From Chloroflexota bacterium (GTDB lineage: Bacteria > Chloroflexota > Limnocylindria > Limnocylindrales > CSP1-4): DNA of 64,000 nt. The notes under the pieces are model-generated. The model was not told the DNA's origin and did no database searches. It worked only from the letters and a program-made list of their open reading frames with translations. Below are positions 6 to 43,400 of the stretch, one piece after another (the stretch's first letter is position 1; each line of letters begins with the position of its first letter). Where the stretch lies: the NCBI GenBank assembly GCA_003169735.1, contig PNAP01000007.1, positions 43,738 to 107,737 of the forward strand, given 5' to 3'. The translations under genes and the position numbers were made by a program.

Positions 6-434
6 GTGAGCGCGGTTGGTATCAACAGCATGACAACGAACGGCCACGACGCGATTCGACGTCCGATGGCTATGATGACGTCCATGCCATCAACCCCAGC
101 GCCACGGACAAAGGCCGCGGCGCGGATCCTCACCTACGCGCGACGGCGGGCCGGCTTGACGCAGCGCGCCCTGGCCGAGAAGTCAGGTGTGCCGCAGGAG
201 ACGATCGCCCGCATCGAATCGACCCGCCAGTCGCCGCGCTTCGACACGCTCGTCCACCTGCTCAACGTCTGTGGCTTCGAACTCGAGGTAGAAGCGAAGA
301 AAGGCATCGGCGTGGACAAGAGCCTGATCGACTCGATGCTGAGCCGCGATCAGGTGACGCGGGCCCGTTCCGCATCCGCCTCGAATGACCTCAACATCCG
401 GATGATGCGCAGCGTTCGTCGGGTAGCGGAATGA
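6..434 (+). CDS. XRE-family helix-turn-helix transcriptional regulator (possible antitoxin)
   Basis: HTH_XRE signature 'LTQRALAEKSGVPQETIARIE'. Protein ~110-140 aa. Several in-frame ATGs, so the true start is uncertain. Stop overlaps the next gene's start (ATGA at 431-434). The window opens with a CTCGAG site, so upstream context is missing. Confidence 0.6.
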   Translation: MSAVGINSMTTNGHDAIRRPMAMMTSMPSTPAPRTKAAARILTYARRRAGLTQRALAEKSGVPQETIARIESTRQSPRFDTLVHLLNVCGFELEVEAKKGIGVDKSLIDSMLSRDQVTRARSASASNDLNIRMMRSVRRVAE

Positions 435-952
435 CGGAGCACCAGTCTGAGGGCCCGTTCCAGGCAGTTCCGCTGCTTGACGTGCTGATTCGCCACCATG
501 TTCGGTTCGTAGTTATCGGTGGGTTCGCGGCCCAGTTGATCGGCTCGCCGCTGGTCACGTTCGACCTGGACGTTTGCTATGCCCGCGATCGCGAGAACCT
601 GGATGCCATGGCCTTGGCCCTCCGTGAGCTGCGAGCGACCCTTCGGGGCGCGCCTGCCGACTTGCCCTTCAGGCTCGATTCCAAGACGCTCGCGAACGGG
701 GATTCGTTCACGTTCGATACGCGTCTGGGTTCGTTCGACATCCTTGGCACGCCAACGGGAACCGCGGGTTTCGACGAACTCAATGCAGCCGCCGATTGGG
801 TCGAGATCGGGGCCGCTCGAGTGCGTGTCGCGTCGATCGACGACTTGATCCGCATGAAGCGTGCCGCGGGCCGGGTGAAGGACCGCGTCCACCTCGAGGA
901 TCTCGGCGCGCTTCGGGATCAGCTCGACAGGATCGACCGGGCGAAGCCGTAG
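431..952 (+). CDS. nucleotidyltransferase-fold protein (minimal NTase, 173 aa)
   Basis: 'VIGGFAAQLIGSPLVTFDLDV' fits the hG[GS]...DxD NTase active-site pattern. The C-terminal 'SIDDLIRMKRAAGRVKDRVHLEDL' is typical of small NTase toxin/antitoxin-like proteins. 4-bp overlap with the upstream HTH gene. Confidence 0.55.
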   Translation: MTEHQSEGPFQAVPLLDVLIRHHVRFVVIGGFAAQLIGSPLVTFDLDVCYARDRENLDAMALALRELRATLRGAPADLPFRLDSKTLANGDSFTFDTRLGSFDILGTPTGTAGFDELNAAADWVEIGAARVRVASIDDLIRMKRAAGRVKDRVHLEDLGALRDQLDRIDRAKP

Positions 953-955
953 GAG

Positions 956-2053
956 TCAGGCGGTAGCGGGCGCCGCCGGTTCGGGGCTGACCTGGGCGTC
1001 GGCCAGCTGGGTCTGGAGGTTCGTCAGGCTGCCGCCGAACAGCTCGGCGACGATGCCCTTGGCGACGGCCCAGATGGCATCGGAGTCCTCCGACTTCAGT
1101 CCGGCGACGTAGAGGGTGACCTGTGTGCCTGCCGGGGTGGGCGCAAGGTCGAAGGTCGAGATCATCGGGCCCATCTGGGTCGTCGACATCAGCGTCACGC
1201 TCTCGAACGGGCGCCACTCGAGGACCTCTTCGATGACGGCGTCCTTCCCGTGGATGCAGTGGTTCGTGGTCCCGACACCAGCGCGGCCGTCGGCGTTCGA
1301 TTGGTCGACGCGGATGACGCCGACCTGCCATCTCGGGCGGAGGCGTGGCGACGTGATCCATTCCCAGACCACGGGCGGCGAGGCGGCCATGTCACGGTCC
1401 ATGCGCATCCAGGCAGAATCGTCATCGAGGTGGTGCTGAGCGCGCAATTCCTCGGCCACCCAGCGGGCGCCGAGATCCTCGACGAAGCCCTCGACGGTGC
1501 CGACGTCGTACTCCTCGGTGTGCGGGAGCATCCCGAGCCGCGGGCAGTCGAGCCCCAATGCCTCGACGGATTCCTTCGTGAGCAGCGCGTAGGCGCGGAG
1601 GCCACGCTGCTCGACGACGTGGTTCTTGAGCAGCCGATGGACGGCGATGACGTCGCTGCCGGCAAGGTTCTCCCGACCACCGACGGTCTGGCGGACGGCC
1701 TGCCCGGCGTGGACGACGAACTTCAAGTCGAGCTTCGGGATGAGGATGCACGCGTTGCACTGGCAACTCGTCGCCTGGGAGACATCGCGGAGGCGGCGGC
1801 GGAAGGCGAAGTAGCAGGCATCGATGGTGTCGAGGAGCTGCGGACCACTCATCGTGGGCGTCGGTGCGAAGACGAAGCACGCATCGCCTTCGACGGCGAC
1901 CAGGGTGAACGGGGGCGCCAGGCGGCCGATCACGGTCTCGATCAGGTCGGTCAGGACGTCCTGGGCGTGATCGAGCTCGGTGCCGGCGAGGTAGCTCGTG
2001 TAGCCGGAGATGTCGGCGATCAGCAGGACGACGGGTTCGGGGGCGCGGAGCAT
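956..2053 (-). CDS. class III adenylate/guanylate cyclase-like domain fused to an SRPBCC (polyketide cyclase-like) domain
   Basis: N-terminus 'VVLLIADISGYTSYL...VAVEGDACFVF' resembles the cyclase DIxGFT...GD..F pattern. The C-terminal half resembles SRPBCC ligand-binding domains. The 365-aa ORF is coherent; its plus-strand overlaps look like shadow ORFs. Confidence 0.55.
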   Translation of the reverse strand: MLRAPEPVVLLIADISGYTSYLAGTELDHAQDVLTDLIETVIGRLAPPFTLVAVEGDACFVFAPTPTMSGPQLLDTIDACYFAFRRRLRDVSQATSCQCNACILIPKLDLKFVVHAGQAVRQTVGGRENLAGSDVIAVHRLLKNHVVEQRGLRAYALLTKESVEALGLDCPRLGMLPHTEEYDVGTVEGFVEDLGARWVAEELRAQHHLDDDSAWMRMDRDMAASPPVVWEWITSPRLRPRWQVGVIRVDQSNADGRAGVGTTNHCIHGKDAVIEEVLEWRPFESVTLMSTTQMGPMISTFDLAPTPAGTQVTLYVAGLKSEDSDAIWAVAKGIVAELFGGSLTNLQTQLADAQVSPEPAAPATA

Positions 2054-2065
2054 TTCCCTCTGACT

Positions 2066-5000
2066 CTAGGCGAGGCCGACGGGCGTGGCAAGGTCGGACG
2101 GTCGGTCGACGTCCCGGAGTGATCGAGCCTCAGCATCGAATACGCGCCAATCGGCCTCCGGGATGACTCGGAGTGCCAGCACCTGCTGGAGAGCGCGGAG
2201 GCTCGATTCCCCGGACGCCGCCAGATCGGAGGCCGCGGCGACGGCGGCGCTGCGGTCAAGGACGATGGGGAGGCGCTGGATCTGGCCGGACGATTCGAGC
2301 ACGACGCCCTGATCGACGTCATAGCGGTAGCTCCCGTCGGGAGCGGCGAGCCGCTGGAGCATGGCGCGGATGACGGCGGTTTCCACCCACGGCATGTCGC
2401 CGGCGATGACGGCGAGGAGCGGCCCCGTCGCCCGCTCGGCACCGGCGGCGAGTCCGGCCAGTGGCCCGGCGAACGGCTGCGGATCGAGCACGACACGGAT
2501 CGGCACGGGCAGGTCGTCGGGGAGCGGCACGGACAGGCCGCCGGCCGGCCCGACGACGATGACCTCGCGGCAGACATTGGCAAGCGCGCGAATCGCATGG
2601 TGGAGGAGCGGCCGGCCATCGAGCGGCTCCGCCATCTTGTCGCGGCCGAAGCGTCGAGAGCGGCCGCCCGCCAGGACGATGCCGGACGAGGCCGGGGTCA
2701 GATGCCTCGGTGCCGGCGACGGCTCTGCGGAGCGGCGGCGACGGAGCGTCGCGGCGGCCGCGGCGGTCGCTGCGGGCGCGGTTGCGACGGGCACGACCTC
2801 GACCACCGCGTTGTAGTCCGGGACCAACGCGACCGGATCCCGCCGGCCGGGCGCGATGAGCGGATTCGCCTCCGGGAAGAACATCTGCACGTTGCCGGGC
2901 CGGATCTCGGCAAGGGTGATCCGCGCCGCGACCTCGCCCGTCTCGGACCGCACCACGACCCGGTCTCCCTCGGCCAGACCGAGCGCTCGGGCGTCCGAAT
3001 CGGCCATGAACAGCGCATCGCGCTCCCCGCCCGTCAGGGGATCGCGCGCCTTCCAGACCATCGAGTTGAACTGCTTGCCGCGGCGGGTAGCCAGCAGGAA
3101 GCGCCCGGGCTGGAGCTCGACCTCGCGGGGTCGGACGGTGGCGAAATGAGCCTTGCCATCGGCCGTCGGGAAGATCCAGCCGTCGCATAGCCGCTCGCCA
3201 CCCCACTGGATCGCGTCGCCGGTCTTGGCCAGGTGCTGGATGCCGTCGTAGAACGGCACGATGCGTGCGATCTCCTCGCGGATCGCCTGGGCCGATTCGA
3301 AATGGCAGAGGGTGGCCGCCCGCTCGGGATCCACCCGGTGCGCCAGCTCCAGCAGCGACTCCCACTCGCTGCGTGCCTCGCCGACCTGTGGGTGGGCAAG
3401 CTCCGGCGAGAACGCCACGCGGCGCTCGGTGGTCGTTTCGGTGCCGCCGCCGGGCTGCTCATAGCGGGTCGTGGCCGGCAGGAGCAGCACCTCCTCGCCC
3501 GGGTCGATGAGCATCTGCGAGCTGACCATGATGTCCTGGTGGACGCGCAGCGGGACGCGCTCCAGGGCCCTCGCGACGTCCGCCGGATCGGGCAGCGTCT
3601 CGAGGAAGTTGCCACCCACCGACCAGAGCACGTCCAGCTCGCCGCGGCCGGCGGCCTCGACCATCTCGGCGGCTGAGCGGCCGCGCTCGCCGCGGAGCGG
3701 GAACCCCCAGCGCGCGCCGAGGTCCGCGGCCGCGTCTTCGGTGATCGGCACACCGCCCGGGAAGACGGTCGCGTACGCGCCCATCTCGGCGCCGCCCTGC
3801 ACGCCGGAGTGGCCGCGAATGGGCATCAGTCCCGTGCCCGGCCGCCCGACATTGCCGCGCGCCAGTGCCAGGTTCATGATCGCCGACACGTTGTCCGTGC
3901 CGCAGACGTGCTGCGTGATGCCCATCGACCAGACGAAGACGGCCGTCTTCGCCGCCGCGTACATGGTCGCGAACCGGCGGATGTCGTCGACGGTGGCGCC
4001 ACTCCAGCGGGCCAGATCCGTGAGCGGGGTCCGCGCCAGCTCCTCGCGCAGATCCTGCCAGCCGTCGGTGTGGCGGGCGATGAAGTCCTCATCGACCGCG
4101 CCCGGGCCGCCATCCTCGATGAGCACCTTCAGCACGCCGTTCAGGAACGCGATGTCGCCGCCGATGTTGACCGGGAAGAACTCGTCGGTGATCTTCGTGC
4201 CGAAGATGGCGCTCTCCGGGTTCGATGGCACCCAGTAGTGCTCGAGGCCCGGCTCGCGGAACGGGTTGACGACGGCGACCTTGCCGCCGCGCTTCTTGGC
4301 CATGTAGAGGTACTTCATGAAGACGGGCTGCGCGTTGGCGACGTCCGAGCCGAAGAGGACGGTCAAGTCTGATTCGATGACGTCCCGGTAGGAGCAGGTG
4401 GTGGCAGCCACACCCAGCGCATGCTTGAGCGCCCCGGTCGACGGCGCGTGGCAGATGCGGGCCGCGTTGTCGATGCTGTTCGTGCCGAAGAAACGCGCGA
4501 CTTTCTGGGCGACGTAGTAGGTCTCGTTGGTGAGGCCGCGCGCGGTGAGGTAGAAGCCGAGGCGGTCGTCGCCGGGCATCGTGGCCGCGGCCGGGTCAGT
4601 CGGCGGGGTGCTCGCGGCCCTCGCCCGGACGATCCGGTCCGCCACCAGGTCGAGCGCCTCCGGCCAGGAGATGCGCCGAAACCCGAGTTCACCGCGCCGC
4701 CGGAGCATCGGGTACGGCAACCGCCCGAGCTTTCGCAGGCTTGCACTGTCGAGCTCGCGCAGGTTGTCGACCACGGCCAGCCGCTCGGGGTCGAGCGGGC
4801 CCATCGTGTTGACCTGGAGCAGGTTGAGGCGCGTCGTGCAGAGATGGACGCCGTCCATCGTCCAGTCCTTGAAGCCGGCCACGCCGAGCGCGCATCCGTC
4901 GCACACGCCCTTGCGCAGGATCCGCCACGCGTACGGCAGATGGCGCCAGTTCTCGCGGACGGTGCGCGCCATCTCCCAGTAGTGATTCGGCTTCTGCCGG

Positions 5001-5245
5001 TCGAGTCCGTTCGGCACGAGCCCGACCCACAGGCGCGGATCGATCCGGCGAGCCTTCTTGCGCGGCGGTCGCAGGGAGACGCGCGGATCCGCGTTGGGCA
5101 GGGCCTCGGCGGCGGGCGGGGGTTCGTGCGGATCGGGCCCGTGCTGCTCGGTGGTCATCGCCTCCGAGTATGCATGCGCGTATCGGGTCGCGGCCTCAGC
5201 GCCCGGCGCCTCGCCGCGAAGCGAAGAGCCGCGTTCCGGCGGCAT
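2066..5245 (-). CDS. FdhF/YdeP-family molybdopterin (bis-MGD) oxidoreductase fused at its C-terminus to a MobA-like molybdenum-cofactor guanylyltransferase domain
   Basis: N-terminal 4Fe-4S motif 'CDGCALGVAGFKDWTMDGVHLC' and the downstream molybdopterin-oxidoreductase body (~800 aa) match YdeP/FdhF-type enzymes. After an Ala-rich linker, the last ~230 aa ('IVLAGGRSRRFGRDKMAEPLDGRPLL...') match MobA (plus-strand coordinates ~2066-2760). It is a single uninterrupted ORF. Confidence 0.8.
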   Translation of the reverse strand: MPPERGSSLRGEAPGAEAATRYAHAYSEAMTTEQHGPDPHEPPPAAEALPNADPRVSLRPPRKKARRIDPRLWVGLVPNGLDRQKPNHYWEMARTVRENWRHLPYAWRILRKGVCDGCALGVAGFKDWTMDGVHLCTTRLNLLQVNTMGPLDPERLAVVDNLRELDSASLRKLGRLPYPMLRRRGELGFRRISWPEALDLVADRIVRARAASTPPTDPAAATMPGDDRLGFYLTARGLTNETYYVAQKVARFFGTNSIDNAARICHAPSTGALKHALGVAATTCSYRDVIESDLTVLFGSDVANAQPVFMKYLYMAKKRGGKVAVVNPFREPGLEHYWVPSNPESAIFGTKITDEFFPVNIGGDIAFLNGVLKVLIEDGGPGAVDEDFIARHTDGWQDLREELARTPLTDLARWSGATVDDIRRFATMYAAAKTAVFVWSMGITQHVCGTDNVSAIMNLALARGNVGRPGTGLMPIRGHSGVQGGAEMGAYATVFPGGVPITEDAAADLGARWGFPLRGERGRSAAEMVEAAGRGELDVLWSVGGNFLETLPDPADVARALERVPLRVHQDIMVSSQMLIDPGEEVLLLPATTRYEQPGGGTETTTERRVAFSPELAHPQVGEARSEWESLLELAHRVDPERAATLCHFESAQAIREEIARIVPFYDGIQHLAKTGDAIQWGGERLCDGWIFPTADGKAHFATVRPREVELQPGRFLLATRRGKQFNSMVWKARDPLTGGERDALFMADSDARALGLAEGDRVVVRSETGEVAARITLAEIRPGNVQMFFPEANPLIAPGRRDPVALVPDYNAVVEVVPVATAPAATAAAAATLRRRRSAEPSPAPRHLTPASSGIVLAGGRSRRFGRDKMAEPLDGRPLLHHAIRALANVCREVIVVGPAGGLSVPLPDDLPVPIRVVLDPQPFAGPLAGLAAGAERATGPLLAVIAGDMPWVETAVIRAMLQRLAAPDGSYRYDVDQGVVLESSGQIQRLPIVLDRSAAVAAASDLAASGESSLRALQQVLALRVIPEADWRVFDAEARSLRDVDRPSDLATPVGLA

Positions 5246-5600
5246 CGCACCAGATCAGGCGGGCCTCCTCGGGCATGGGCGCCGCCGCACCGGCTGCATG
5301 GGTGCCGGCAGACGCAGTCAGCGGCTTACGTCACCTCGACGCGAATCTGGCCAATCGGATGTCGTCCTTGTCGACCGATCTGGTTCACCTGACCCATGCA
5401 CCCGGTACGCCCAGCCACAAGCCTTGACTCCGCCCGTCCTTGAGCGAGCCGACCGGCGTAGAACCATTCGTTCACGCTGGCAGCACCCATGCAGGCGGTA
5501 CACCGCCGGTCAAACCGCGGCACGTGGTCAATCCGATCTCGGCCGACGGGCCGCGAAGAGTCGAGTTGATGCCGCGTCGCACCAGATCAGGCCCGGGTCG
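5215..5600. repeat. cluster of short dispersed/inverted repeats (left flank of the XRE gene)
   Basis: Direct repeat of ~50 bp ('gccgcgaagag...gcgtcgcaccagatcaggc') at ~5215-5265 and ~5549-5600. Motif 'cccatgca(g/c)(g/c)cggtac' at ~5393 and ~5484, and its reverse complement 'ccggctgcatgggtgccgg' at ~5290. Confidence 0.6.
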
Positions 5601-6319
5601 ATAGGTGGCTCGGTGCCGAGCGTCAGTGCACGCAGCCACCCGACCGAGGAGCCTGGGAAACGCGTGGCGAAGATTTCGGGGTAGCGCGCCAGGAGCGAGC
5701 GGTTTCGGGCGAGGTCTCGGACGACCCAGCAGACACCGACTCGAAATGGCTCGCCTGCCCCGACCCCGATGGCGAGCGCCCCTGCCTCGGCGCGCTTCCG
5801 TTCCGACGCGCGCGTGGCTCCGCCGACATTGACGAGCGTATTGATGCATTCGACAAGGACGAGCCAGCGGCTCCTGATGTTGATGAGGCCAACATCGGTC
5901 GATCTCGATGGGTCGTCTGGCTTGGTCGAAAGTTCGAAACGTCGAACGTAGCCGGCCGGCTTGGCAGTTCTCATCACCAGCTCCTGGATGCGGAGGTGGC
6001 CGGCATCGACGGGTTCCTCGTTCGGGTCGCGCGACAGATCGATGCGCAGAGCGATGCCCAGAGCGACGGCCATCCGTTGCCAGGTGTCCACAGTGTGTCC
6101 ACCGCCGCGGCCGAGTTCGAGGTCACTGATCGTGGTCTGCGAGAGGCCGGATCGCGCACCGAGTCGCGCCTGTGTCCAGCGCCGCCGCTGACGAGCGGCG
6201 CGGATGGCGCCACCGAGTCGTCCCAATTGCTCAGCATTGCGCCGACGGGCCTCGGCGGCGAGTTCGATAGGCTTGAGCTTGACCATACCGGCTGCATGGT
6301 TACCGACTGGCCTTACCAT
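5528..6319 (-). CDS. XRE-family HTH regulator with a ~150-aa C-terminal domain
   Basis: 'WTQARLGARSGLSQTTISDLELGRG' is an HTH_XRE motif. The last ~20 codons lie inside a ~50-bp sequence that is repeated upstream of the fdhF-like gene. Confidence 0.6.
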   Translation of the reverse strand: MVRPVGNHAAGMVKLKPIELAAEARRRNAEQLGRLGGAIRAARQRRRWTQARLGARSGLSQTTISDLELGRGGGHTVDTWQRMAVALGIALRIDLSRDPNEEPVDAGHLRIQELVMRTAKPAGYVRRFELSTKPDDPSRSTDVGLINIRSRWLVLVECINTLVNVGGATRASERKRAEAGALAIGVGAGEPFRVGVCWVVRDLARNRSLLARYPEIFATRFPGSSVGWLRALTLGTEPPIDPGLIWCDAASTRLFAARRPRSD

Positions 6320-6703: not shown

Positions 6704-7576
6704 CTACCCGTTGAGGTCGATGCGCTCGCGGCCGGTGTAGATGTTGAAGCGGTCGGCGCGGAGGAAGCCGATCAGGGTCAGATTCAGACGAGCGGCGGTG
6801 GCGACGGCGAGTGCCGATGGGGCCGACACGGCCGCCAGGATCGGGATCCCGGCCATCGCGGCTTTCTGGACGATCTCGAACGAGACTCGGCCGGAGACGA
6901 GCAACACGTCGCCGCTGAGTGGCACGCGGCCGGCCAACGCCATCGCGCCGATCAACTTGTCCAGGGCGTTGTGGCGGCCGACATCTTCGTGCAGCGCGAC
7001 CAACTCACCCGCGGGCGTGAAAAGCGCCGACGCGTGGAGTCCACCGGTCGATTCGAACACCGACTGCGCCGCGCGCATCGACCCCGGGAGGCCGATGAGC
7101 ACGGATCGACCGACGACCAGACCCGGCCCGAGCGGCGAGCAGCGAGCGGCGATGTCGTCGATCGAGGCTTTGCCGCAGATCCCGCAACTCGCCGTCGCCA
7201 CGAAATTCCGCTCGGCCACGCGCGAGGCATCGAAGGCACCGGCAAGGCGGACCGTGATCTCGTTCTCGGGCTGAGCCATCCGCGCCGGGTCACCCGCCTC
7301 GAATCGGGCGCCGGCGAGGTCGGTCGGGCGAACCAGTCCCTCGGACACGAGGAAGCCGGCCGCCAGCTCCCGTTCCGCACCCGGGGTTCGCATCGTGACC
7401 GCGACATCGACCGGGTCGTGGCCCGGCCCGCAGGCGCGGATCTCGAGCGGCTCCTCTCCGACCAGGCGCTCGTCGCGTTCCACCGATATCTCGCCCGAGA
7501 CGGCCAGGACACGCGCGGTGCCGGTCGTCCGCAACCAGCCAGCAAGCGGATCGTCGGGCAGATGGGCGGCGGCCAT
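6704..7576 (-). CDS. fdhD: formate dehydrogenase accessory sulfurtransferase FdhD
   Basis: 'SCGICGK' catalytic-cysteine motif and 'GRHNALDK' are FdhD hallmarks. Length 290 aa. Confidence 0.9.
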   Translation of the reverse strand: MAAAHLPDDPLAGWLRTTGTARVLAVSGEISVERDERLVGEEPLEIRACGPGHDPVDVAVTMRTPGAERELAAGFLVSEGLVRPTDLAGARFEAGDPARMAQPENEITVRLAGAFDASRVAERNFVATASCGICGKASIDDIAARCSPLGPGLVVGRSVLIGLPGSMRAAQSVFESTGGLHASALFTPAGELVALHEDVGRHNALDKLIGAMALAGRVPLSGDVLLVSGRVSFEIVQKAAMAGIPILAAVSAPSALAVATAARLNLTLIGFLRADRFNIYTGRERIDLNG

Positions 7577-43272: not shown

Positions 43273-43348
43273 TCTAGGCGAATTGGTAGGGGAGCCTGGA
43301 TTCGAACCAGGAACCAGCCGGATATAAGCCGACCGCTCTAACCGTTGA
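43273..43348 (-). tRNA. tRNA-Ile, anticodon UAU (tRNA-Ile2-like)
   Basis: Reverse complement gives a 76-nt cloverleaf: GGGGGAG|TA|GCTC-AACGGTTA-GAGC|G|GTCGG-CTTATAT-CCGGC|TGGTT|CCTGG-TTCGAAT-CCAGG|CTCCCCT|A|CCA. The anticodon loop CU-UAU-AU places TAT at positions 34-36. Architecture resembles E. coli tRNA-Ile2. Confidence 0.8.
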
Positions 43349-43400
43349 GCTACTCCCCCGCCGAGATGCTACACCGGCCGTTGCCGACGAAGCTCGGCGG

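Follow-up and report, generated by a model that had tools for sequence, protein, structure and literature searches.

An XRE-nucleotidyltransferase gene pair from Chloroflexota with likeness to MenAT-type toxin-antitoxin cassettes

What does a small DNA-binding protein do beside a minimal nucleotidyltransferase (NTase)? The question is raised by two overlapping genes at the beginning of a 64,000-nucleotide stretch of Chloroflexota DNA (GenBank assembly GCA_003169735.1, contig PNAP01000007.1, positions 43,738 to 107,737), hereafter the window. The first gene encodes an XRE-type helix-turn-helix (HTH) protein, the partner, and the second a 173-residue NTase. An initial annotation, made from the sequence alone, compared the pair to toxin-antitoxin (TA) and abortive-infection modules. 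On balance, the comparative evidence favors a chromosomal two-gene TA-like cassette of the MenAT/DUF1814-superfamily kind, carrying a probably undescribed type of antitoxin. From the earlier comparison, the TA part is retained, as the module is conserved and the nearest characterized relative of its enzyme is the TA toxin MenT1; no link to abortive infection was found. All coordinates are those of the window, on the plus strand unless a minus sign is given. The NTase gene, open reading frame (ORF) B, encodes the proposed MenT1-like toxin and occupies 431-952. The partner gene probably occupies 84-434 (116 residues from ATG 84). The reported ATGA overlap of 4 bp is present at 431-434, with ATG at 431-433 and TGA at 432-434, an arrangement typical of translational coupling.

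The NTase belongs to a populous family. At E ≤ 1e-3, 3653 relatives were found in a protein collection clustered at 90% identity. Among the representatives of 50%-identity clusters there were 14401 at the same threshold, 4678 at E ≤ 1e-10, and 437 at E ≤ 1e-30. Residue conservation was taken from an alignment of 37 relatives that are 55-73% identical to the window NTase. Twelve positions are invariant in this alignment: G30, G38, T43, D45, D47, R72, D83, D103, K143, R148, D151, and E156. The GG...DxD signature first noted in the protein is there as described (G30-G31 ... D45-L-D47), and it is part of a set of catalytic N-terminal motifs (518-571) comprising hGG (G30-G31), G38-S39, and T43-x-D45-x-D47, all invariant or nearly so. 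The probable third catalytic carboxylate is D103 (737-739), which sits in an fDiL motif on the beta-strand E100-105 of the structural model. A C-terminal helical motif, K143-RAAG-R148-x-K-D151-....-E156 (857-898), contributes the last four invariant residues.

An AlphaFold2 (AF2) model of the enzyme (predicted local distance difference test score, pLDDT, 94.2) has a Pol-beta-type NTase fold with the hG[GS] motif, the DxD motif, and the third carboxylate. Its best structural match is MenT1 of M. tuberculosis (8AN4; score 13.6, 142 residues aligned, 22% identity), followed by TM1012 (12.7), LnuA (11.2), ANT(2'')-Ia (10.9), JHP933 (9.6), TglT/MenT3 (9.5), and MenT4 (8.0). MenT1 is also the sole significant sequence match of the family profile in the PDB (E 2.9e-4; profile positions 11-154). 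A PDB search with the single NTase sequence returned chance matches only, and the family profile was needed. With hhalign, the profile is related to a MenT1 fragment at 84% probability (E 7e-6). The HMMER alignment pairs the N-terminal motifs with G-G ... T39-x-D41-x-D43 of MenT1, placing T43, D45, D47, and K143 opposite T39, D41, D43, and K137, and D103 aligns with the D of VVVDLL. Nucleoside triphosphate binding, toxicity, and tRNA modification by MenT1 all depend on D41 and K137, and the antitoxin induces autophosphorylation at T39 (PMC10435456, PMC11375011). The catalytic Lys of the C-terminal helical domain, K137 in MenT1, is the invariant K143 here. The phospho-acceptor position, a Ser or Thr two residues before DxD (T39 in MenT1, S78 in MenT3), is T43 in 37 of 37 relatives. 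Because the structural matches, the profile and hhalign matches, and the residue alignment with MenT1 agree, the NTase-fold assignment is secure. The enzyme belongs, as a distant MenT1-like member, to the clan of DUF2204, DUF6036, and AbiEii, and it lies formally outside PF08843. Its length, much shorter than that of AbiEii, is explained by MenT1, an enzyme of comparably small size (196 residues).

The structural matches include LnuA and ANT(2'')-Ia, and they bring up an alternative function. The NTase could be a non-toxic small-molecule nucleotidylyltransferase that modifies an antibiotic or metabolite, as those two enzymes do, and the XRE protein its dedicated repressor. Such an activity is rather unlikely. 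No relationship to ANT(2'')-Ia or LnuA exists at the profile level: with the verified sequence of ANT(2'')-Ia, the family profile reached a probability of 0.1% in hhalign, compared with the value for MenT1 above, and a profile search of PDB sequences recovered no antibiotic NTase even at E ≤ 10. Matches to PF10706 are weak, the best being 6.4e-5 among relatives, and the window NTase has none. Neither antibiotic enzyme has an HTH partner, a T-x-D-x-D motif (ANT(2'') carries H in place of T), or a K...R.KD motif, and the invariance of both motifs in the window family fits MenT-type enzymes. A plain repressor would also have no need of a stop/start overlap, of fusion to the enzyme, or of a C-terminal module that outlasts loss of the HTH, all of which are found in this family.

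Conservation of the pair was assessed in a scan of one genome per species, which yielded 469 confirmed NTase relatives; locus counts refer to the best 80 loci. These loci come from Actinomycetota (32), Chloroflexota (36, many of them Limnocylindria), Acidobacteriota (8), and, with one each, Gemmatimonadota, Dormibacterota, Gammaproteobacteria, and an unclassified source. The NTases are 53-65% identical to the query, whatever the phylum. A homologue of the HTH protein lies directly upstream on the same strand in 75 of the 80 loci, and truncated contigs account for two of the other five. The 4-bp stop/start overlap is found in 44 of 74 separate pairs. No third gene accompanies them, as clustering of flanking ORFs within 4.5 kb gave no family in more than 12 of the 80 loci, and the largest clusters look like high-GC noise. 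Both neighborhoods with Pfam annotation contain metabolic or housekeeping genes. In the window, a divergent YCII gene and a convergent neighbor bracket the pair, which is therefore a two-gene unit. The pair is a conserved, translationally coupled, autonomous two-gene cassette found in variable contexts across phyla.

Some carriers depart from the single chromosomal copy. Two separate HTH-NTase cassettes (L041 and L069) occur in one Chloroflexota metagenome-assembled genome (MGR_bin164, JACCWY01); therefore, the module can be multi-copy within a genome. The two plasmid cases found are a Mycolicibacterium rufum plasmid and a Miltoncostaea oceani megaplasmid, with NTases that are only 35% identical. 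Both NTases are named 'hypothetical protein' in RefSeq and follow an annotated 'helix-turn-helix transcriptional regulator'. An IS110 transposase lies 2.2 kb from the M. rufum pair (L090; NZ_CP092428.2, 126257-127309), whose plasmid is mobilizable (MOBF); no other inspected pair is in an obvious mobile-element context.

Synteny also bears on the direction of toxicity. The initial annotation pointed to MNT-type modules, in which a minimal NTase (MNT) is the antitoxin or regulator and the toxin is encoded elsewhere (HEPN-MNT, type VII). Small size and the NTase fold are what the enzyme shares with such proteins. No HEPN gene adjoins the pair in the window or in the 80 loci, the HTH protein is the sole conserved neighbor, Pfam gives no NTP_transf_2/MNT match, and the C-terminal K...R.KD helical domain is of the MenT/DUF1814 type. 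In the favored cassette the NTase would be the toxin, not the antitoxin. The HEPN-MNT reading, to which we give almost no probability, was rejected, effectively by synteny.

The partner is a modular protein that joins an antitoxin-type HTH to a conserved two-helix C-terminal module. The XRE HTH recognized at the outset is recovered by Pfam in ORF A (HTH_3, E 3.6e-11; HTH_31, E 4.8e-11), and the DNA-binding domain spans 135-287, which corresponds to residues 44-94 of the 142-residue ORF in the HTH_3 match. Its profile is nearest in the PDB to the antitoxins HigA (6af3, E 1.2e-12) and HipB. In the alignment of 78 partners, the HTH accounts for about 60 N-terminal residues, and behind it comes a conserved stretch of some 45 residues at the C-terminus (consensus G.GvDRtlIr..LrltP.eR...A). 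In the window, this module (285-431; GIGVDKSLIDSMLSRDQVTR) is the proposed NTase-binding and neutralizing region. The module is kept in pairs whose NTases are only 35% identical. It is also kept in three HTH-less partners of 68-79 residues (L009, L010, and L085), which retain the overlapping position. The module alone has no match in Pfam or the PDB (best E 0.22), and no detectable similarity to MenA1 was found; judged by these sequence comparisons, it is regarded as undescribed.

Upstream of the partner genes lies a second conserved element. In the 130 bp ahead of 76 partner genes, enriched 7-mers converge on TGATAGC/GCTATCA, which is present in 28 of 76 upstream regions compared with 3 of 578 control windows. 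When both half-sites are required with at most one mismatch each, the inverted repeat of the main clade, TGATAGC-N6-GCTATCA, is found at 33 of 76 loci; any pair of half-sites occurs in only 3 of 585 control windows, and at least one half-site is found at 62 of the 76 loci. The half-sites usually lie at -27/-28 and -14/-15 from the start codon, and the repeat spans -28 to -8. The window falls in a sub-clade together with its four closest relatives (L014, L046, L052, and L023), and all five have, at the same position as one another, a palindrome of the form TGATGAC-N6-GTCATCA. In the window, the probable operator, at 73-92 with no strand assigned, is a 7-6-7 inverted repeat, TGATGAC-GTCCAT-GCCATCA (TGATGACGTCCATGCCATCA), which overlaps the probable partner start codon. 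It is the sole match to the sub-clade pattern at one mismatch or fewer in the 64-kb window, and none of 100 shuffles matched. The main-clade pattern occurs in the window only at 3 mismatches, which alone is not significant, and it was not found upstream of the distant M. rufum pair. A consensus promoter/terminator scan of the window upstream region, which required both hexamers, and a generic inverted-repeat search gave nothing useful; the operator emerged only by comparing the 76 upstream regions. The palindrome is conserved on the partner start. As in type II systems with XRE antitoxins, a small XRE-HTH protein is encoded upstream of the proposed toxin, with a palindrome, the predicted operator, at its own promoter.

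The palindrome also helps to place the start of the partner gene. ORF A was first called as a 142-residue frame (6-434), and the frame is indeed open from position 6, with in-frame starts at GTG 6, ATG 30, ATG 66, ATG 72, and ATG 75 in addition to ATG 84. Other gene calls use ATG 66. The closest relatives favor ATG 84, and the 5' end of the original call appears over-extended. A start at ATG 84, rather than 6 or 66, is inferred because ATG(T/C)CATCA lies within the palindrome in 5 of 5 sub-clade members and the proteins can be aligned only past that ATG. A -10-like hexamer, TATGAT (71-76), ends 7 nucleotides before ATG 84 and would be consistent with leaderless promoter geometry; an analogous TATCAT is part of the main-clade half-site. 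In L008, an exact match to the degenerate operator pattern TGATRRC-N6-GYYATCA (7217-7236, plus strand) occurs about 1.2 kb downstream of the cassette and away from the start of the HTH gene, where it may have arisen by chance or may serve as a second binding site.

In part of the family, the two proteins are a single polypeptide. Many of the best 150 cluster representatives are 250-310 residues long with the NTase at the C-terminus, and an N-terminal HTH_3 domain was detected in 8 of 8 scanned representatives of that length. Thirteen full-length fusions came out of a search aimed at them, with only 45-58% identity to the query fusion. No catalytic residue is lost in these diverged proteins, and P0130, one of their number, was recovered in identical form from three independent assemblies; the fusions are therefore real and maintained. 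An AF2 model of P0130 (pLDDT 92.6; predicted template modeling score, pTM, 0.80) folds the partner C-terminal stretch into two confident helices, residues 71-77 and 82-95, which suggests defined packing against the enzyme. The fused gene has a 3-mismatch copy of the operator that ends 5 nucleotides ahead of its start. Fusions are also frequent in the HEPN-MNT and Xre-COG2856 modules described by Makarova et al. (PMC3632139).

Other relatives are extended at the C-terminus. P0201 (428 residues) carries an entire enoyl-CoA hydratase domain there (ECH_1, E 1.3e-49), and P0197 (287 residues) and the NTase ORFs of L057 and L061 (to about 290 residues) are likewise extended. These could be real fusions, or read-through or assembly artefacts.

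Several results weigh against a TA cassette of the MenAT kind. At least 13 diverged lineages carry HTH and NTase in one polypeptide, which is unusual for a classical system with a labile antitoxin. The Pfam check that the initial annotation proposed for the 173-residue protein finds its closest families, DUF2204 and DUF6036, within the NTase clan, with both scores below threshold (15.6 bits vs 20.3, and 12.4 vs 23.6). PF08843 (AbiEii/DUF1814) is not matched by the window NTase at E ≤ 1, and it is matched by only 2 of the 37 relatives (best E 2.6e-6), 37 and 33 of which have weak matches to DUF2204 and DUF6036, respectively. An NCBIfam scan of the enzyme gave only sub-threshold chance matches, to IF-1A models, and PADLOC and PHROGs scans gave none. 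The counterpart of MenT1 D152 is ambiguous: it falls opposite the variable H154 in the hidden Markov model alignment, with the invariant D151 and E156 on either side. The antibiotic NTases are structural matches only moderately worse than MenT1. Relatives occur in only 2 of 72,556 plasmid records, and there are none in 50,697 phage records or in the IMG/VR viral contigs.

Could the fusions instead be regulators? The pair or fusion might act as an enzyme-coupled transcription switch in the manner of BirA or NadR, in which binding or consumption of a nucleotide by the NTase, or its nucleotidylation or phosphorylation of itself or of the HTH partner, tunes binding to the palindrome. Such a switch would account for the recurrence of diverged fusions with intact catalytic residues, for the recovery of P0130 in three assemblies, and for the operator retained ahead of the fused gene, and it would agree with the housekeeping neighborhoods, the near absence from plasmids, and the absence from phages. 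We nevertheless consider it unlikely. The HTH-less partners cannot act as transcription switches, and no conserved target gene or regulon neighbor exists besides the pair, whose evident regulated genes are its own. The patchy spread across phyla and the multiple copies per genome suit selfish or mobile modules better, and every one of the nearest characterized relatives is a toxin that arrests growth.

Homology to the AbiEii/MenT superfamily also allows a dedicated AbiE-type role in abortive infection or phage defense. The mechanism would be that of the favored TA-like cassette with a phage trigger, and the fusions would be single-chain sensors. A precedent exists in CapRel, a cis-fused toxin-antitoxin protein that senses phage. 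The proposed association with defense islands finds no support in the PADLOC scan, which has no match for the enzyme, in the phage and viral searches, which offer no relatives to hint at an arms race, or in the inspected neighborhoods, both of which are metabolic or housekeeping where Pfam-annotated, although no defense-island enrichment test was made. A defense function is quite improbable on this evidence.

The TA-like reading, which we favor, leads to the following proposed mechanism. The HTH of the partner would bind the palindrome at 73-92 and repress a leaderless operon transcript, and its C-terminal helices would bind the NTase and hold it inactive by occlusion. An additional layer of silencing might be induced autophosphorylation of T43, as MenA1 does to T39 of MenT1. 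Depletion or displacement of the partner would free the NTase, in which Mg2+ bound by D45, D47, and D103, together with K143, would support the addition of nucleotides to an RNA 3' end. The most likely substrate would be the tRNA CCA end, with the consequence that aminoacylation and translation are blocked and growth is arrested. This specific target is a real possibility, though one we hold as tentative.

The system most similar to the cassette is MenA1-MenT1 of M. tuberculosis (Rv0078B-Rv0078A; PDB 8AN4, 8AN5, 8RR5). The likeness is distant, as the window NTase is only about 22% identical to MenT1 and below the Pfam AbiEii/DUF1814 threshold. An XRE HTH is present in the usual partner but not in MenA1, and the window family contains natural fusions. 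MenA1, at 68 residues, falls in the size class of the 68-79-residue HTH-less partners. Repression of MenAT1 is the task of another protein, Rv0078 (PMC10435456). AbiEi-AbiEii and MenA3-MenT3 (COG5340-DUF1814; type IV/VII TA and abortive infection) have enzymes of the same superfamily as the window NTase. Their antitoxins resemble the partner in combining an N-terminal DNA-binding domain with a C-terminal neutralizing domain and in belonging to an autoregulated operon, neutralization and autoregulation being predictions for the partner. As with the MenT and AbiEii toxins, the accompanying gene lies upstream in the same operon, but its family is XRE, not COG5340 or MenA1. The likeness to AbiEi that had been suggested does not extend to the partner, whose HTH_3/HTH_31 domain is not a COG5340 winged helix and gave only generic HTH matches in PADLOC (RmrA and CapH), none of them to AbiEi.

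Other known systems resemble one half of the cassette. HigA and HipB, the nearest relatives of the partner HTH, likewise have a palindromic operator at the promoter, but their toxins are unrelated (a RelE-fold RNase and the HipA kinase) and the C-terminal module of the partner is different. DUF2204 (PF09970) and DUF6036 (PF19502) are related to the NTase below their gathering thresholds, with the structural match TM1012 available as PDB 2EWR; a literature search on both families and their accessions found nothing functional. A pairing of Xre with an NTase is not described as a TA system in Makarova 2009 or 2013.

The translation-inhibitor class formed by the MenT and AbiEii NTase toxins has been understood only recently, and its antitoxins have so far been of the COG5340 or MenA1 type. 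The cassette would add to this class an XRE-type antitoxin with a new neutralizing module, and it would bring in a large family (thousands of sequence clusters) whose members are annotated only as 'hypothetical protein' and come mostly from uncultured Actinomycetota, Chloroflexota, and Acidobacteriota of soil and groundwater. We regard it as a worthwhile extension of MenT/AbiE biology through family size, a new partner module, the operator, and the fusions, albeit one that would not astonish a specialist. With T43 invariant, the proposed generality of antitoxin-induced autophosphorylation can be tested directly in a remote branch. In the natural fusions and the HTH-less partners, the module comes already dissected, and cultured carriers exist in Mycolicibacterium rufum JCM 16372 (WP_043416234.1 / WP_052429202.1), on its plasmid, and Miltoncostaea oceani. 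A bolder version, which we think somewhat unlikely, is that split and fused XRE-NTases form an unrecognized, very large MenT-like class inactivated in cis or in trans by the two-helix module (G.GvDR..I...L.tP.eR). The fusions would then be single-chain, self-repressing sensor-effectors, or the NTase would be an enzymatic co-regulator of its own HTH and not a toxin. If true, this would represent new regulatory logic for NTase-fold enzymes, beyond another toxin-antitoxin pair.

The flanks of the pair add some detail on its setting. Twelve public metagenomic contigs carry the 173-residue NTase in identical form. CTCGAG at position 1 is the window edge only, as the same sequence runs on upstream in public contigs; in one of them (L003), the YCII gene begins on the opposite strand about 10 bp ahead of window position 1. 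No second copy of the module was found within the 64-kb window. The convergent neighbor (956-2053, minus strand) has the cyclase-like and SRPBCC domains attributed to it, which Pfam identifies as DUF2652 (E 1.3e-28) and Polyketide_cyc2/SRPBCC (E 3.6e-10). The suggested functional link to the pair did not hold, with a DUF2652/SRPBCC gene near the pair in 0 of 80 loci. In two contigs with an identical NTase, the region equivalent to window 956-2053 differs (L001, 10526-11754; L002, 755-1983). By tblastn, similarity is confined to the first 265 query residues (78% identity), and gene calls there yield a 148-residue SRPBCC-only protein and a 221-residue ORF on the opposite strand. The DUF2652 half appears diverged or disrupted between strains.

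Beyond this neighbor, a 1059-residue ORF (2066-5245, minus strand) combines a formate-dehydrogenase-like molybdopterin oxidoreductase (Molybdopterin, Molydop_binding) with a C-terminal MobA-like NTP transferase (PF12804, E 1.5e-29), placing an enzyme and a cofactor-maturation domain in a single polypeptide. An FdhD gene lies near the molybdoenzyme gene in L001. A second XRE-HTH protein of 263 residues (5528-6319, minus strand; HTH_31/HTH_3, E 1.6e-8) has about 170 C-terminal residues without a Pfam match, and its gene adjoins the molybdoenzyme gene also in L001 and L002. The sole tRNA of the window is a tRNA-Ile with anticodon TAT (UAU) at 43284-43359 (minus strand), identified by ARAGORN and by the Rfam tRNA model (67.3 bits). 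AUA codons are read in most bacteria by a tRNA with a lysidine-modified CAU anticodon, and a genomic UAU isoacceptor is uncommon.

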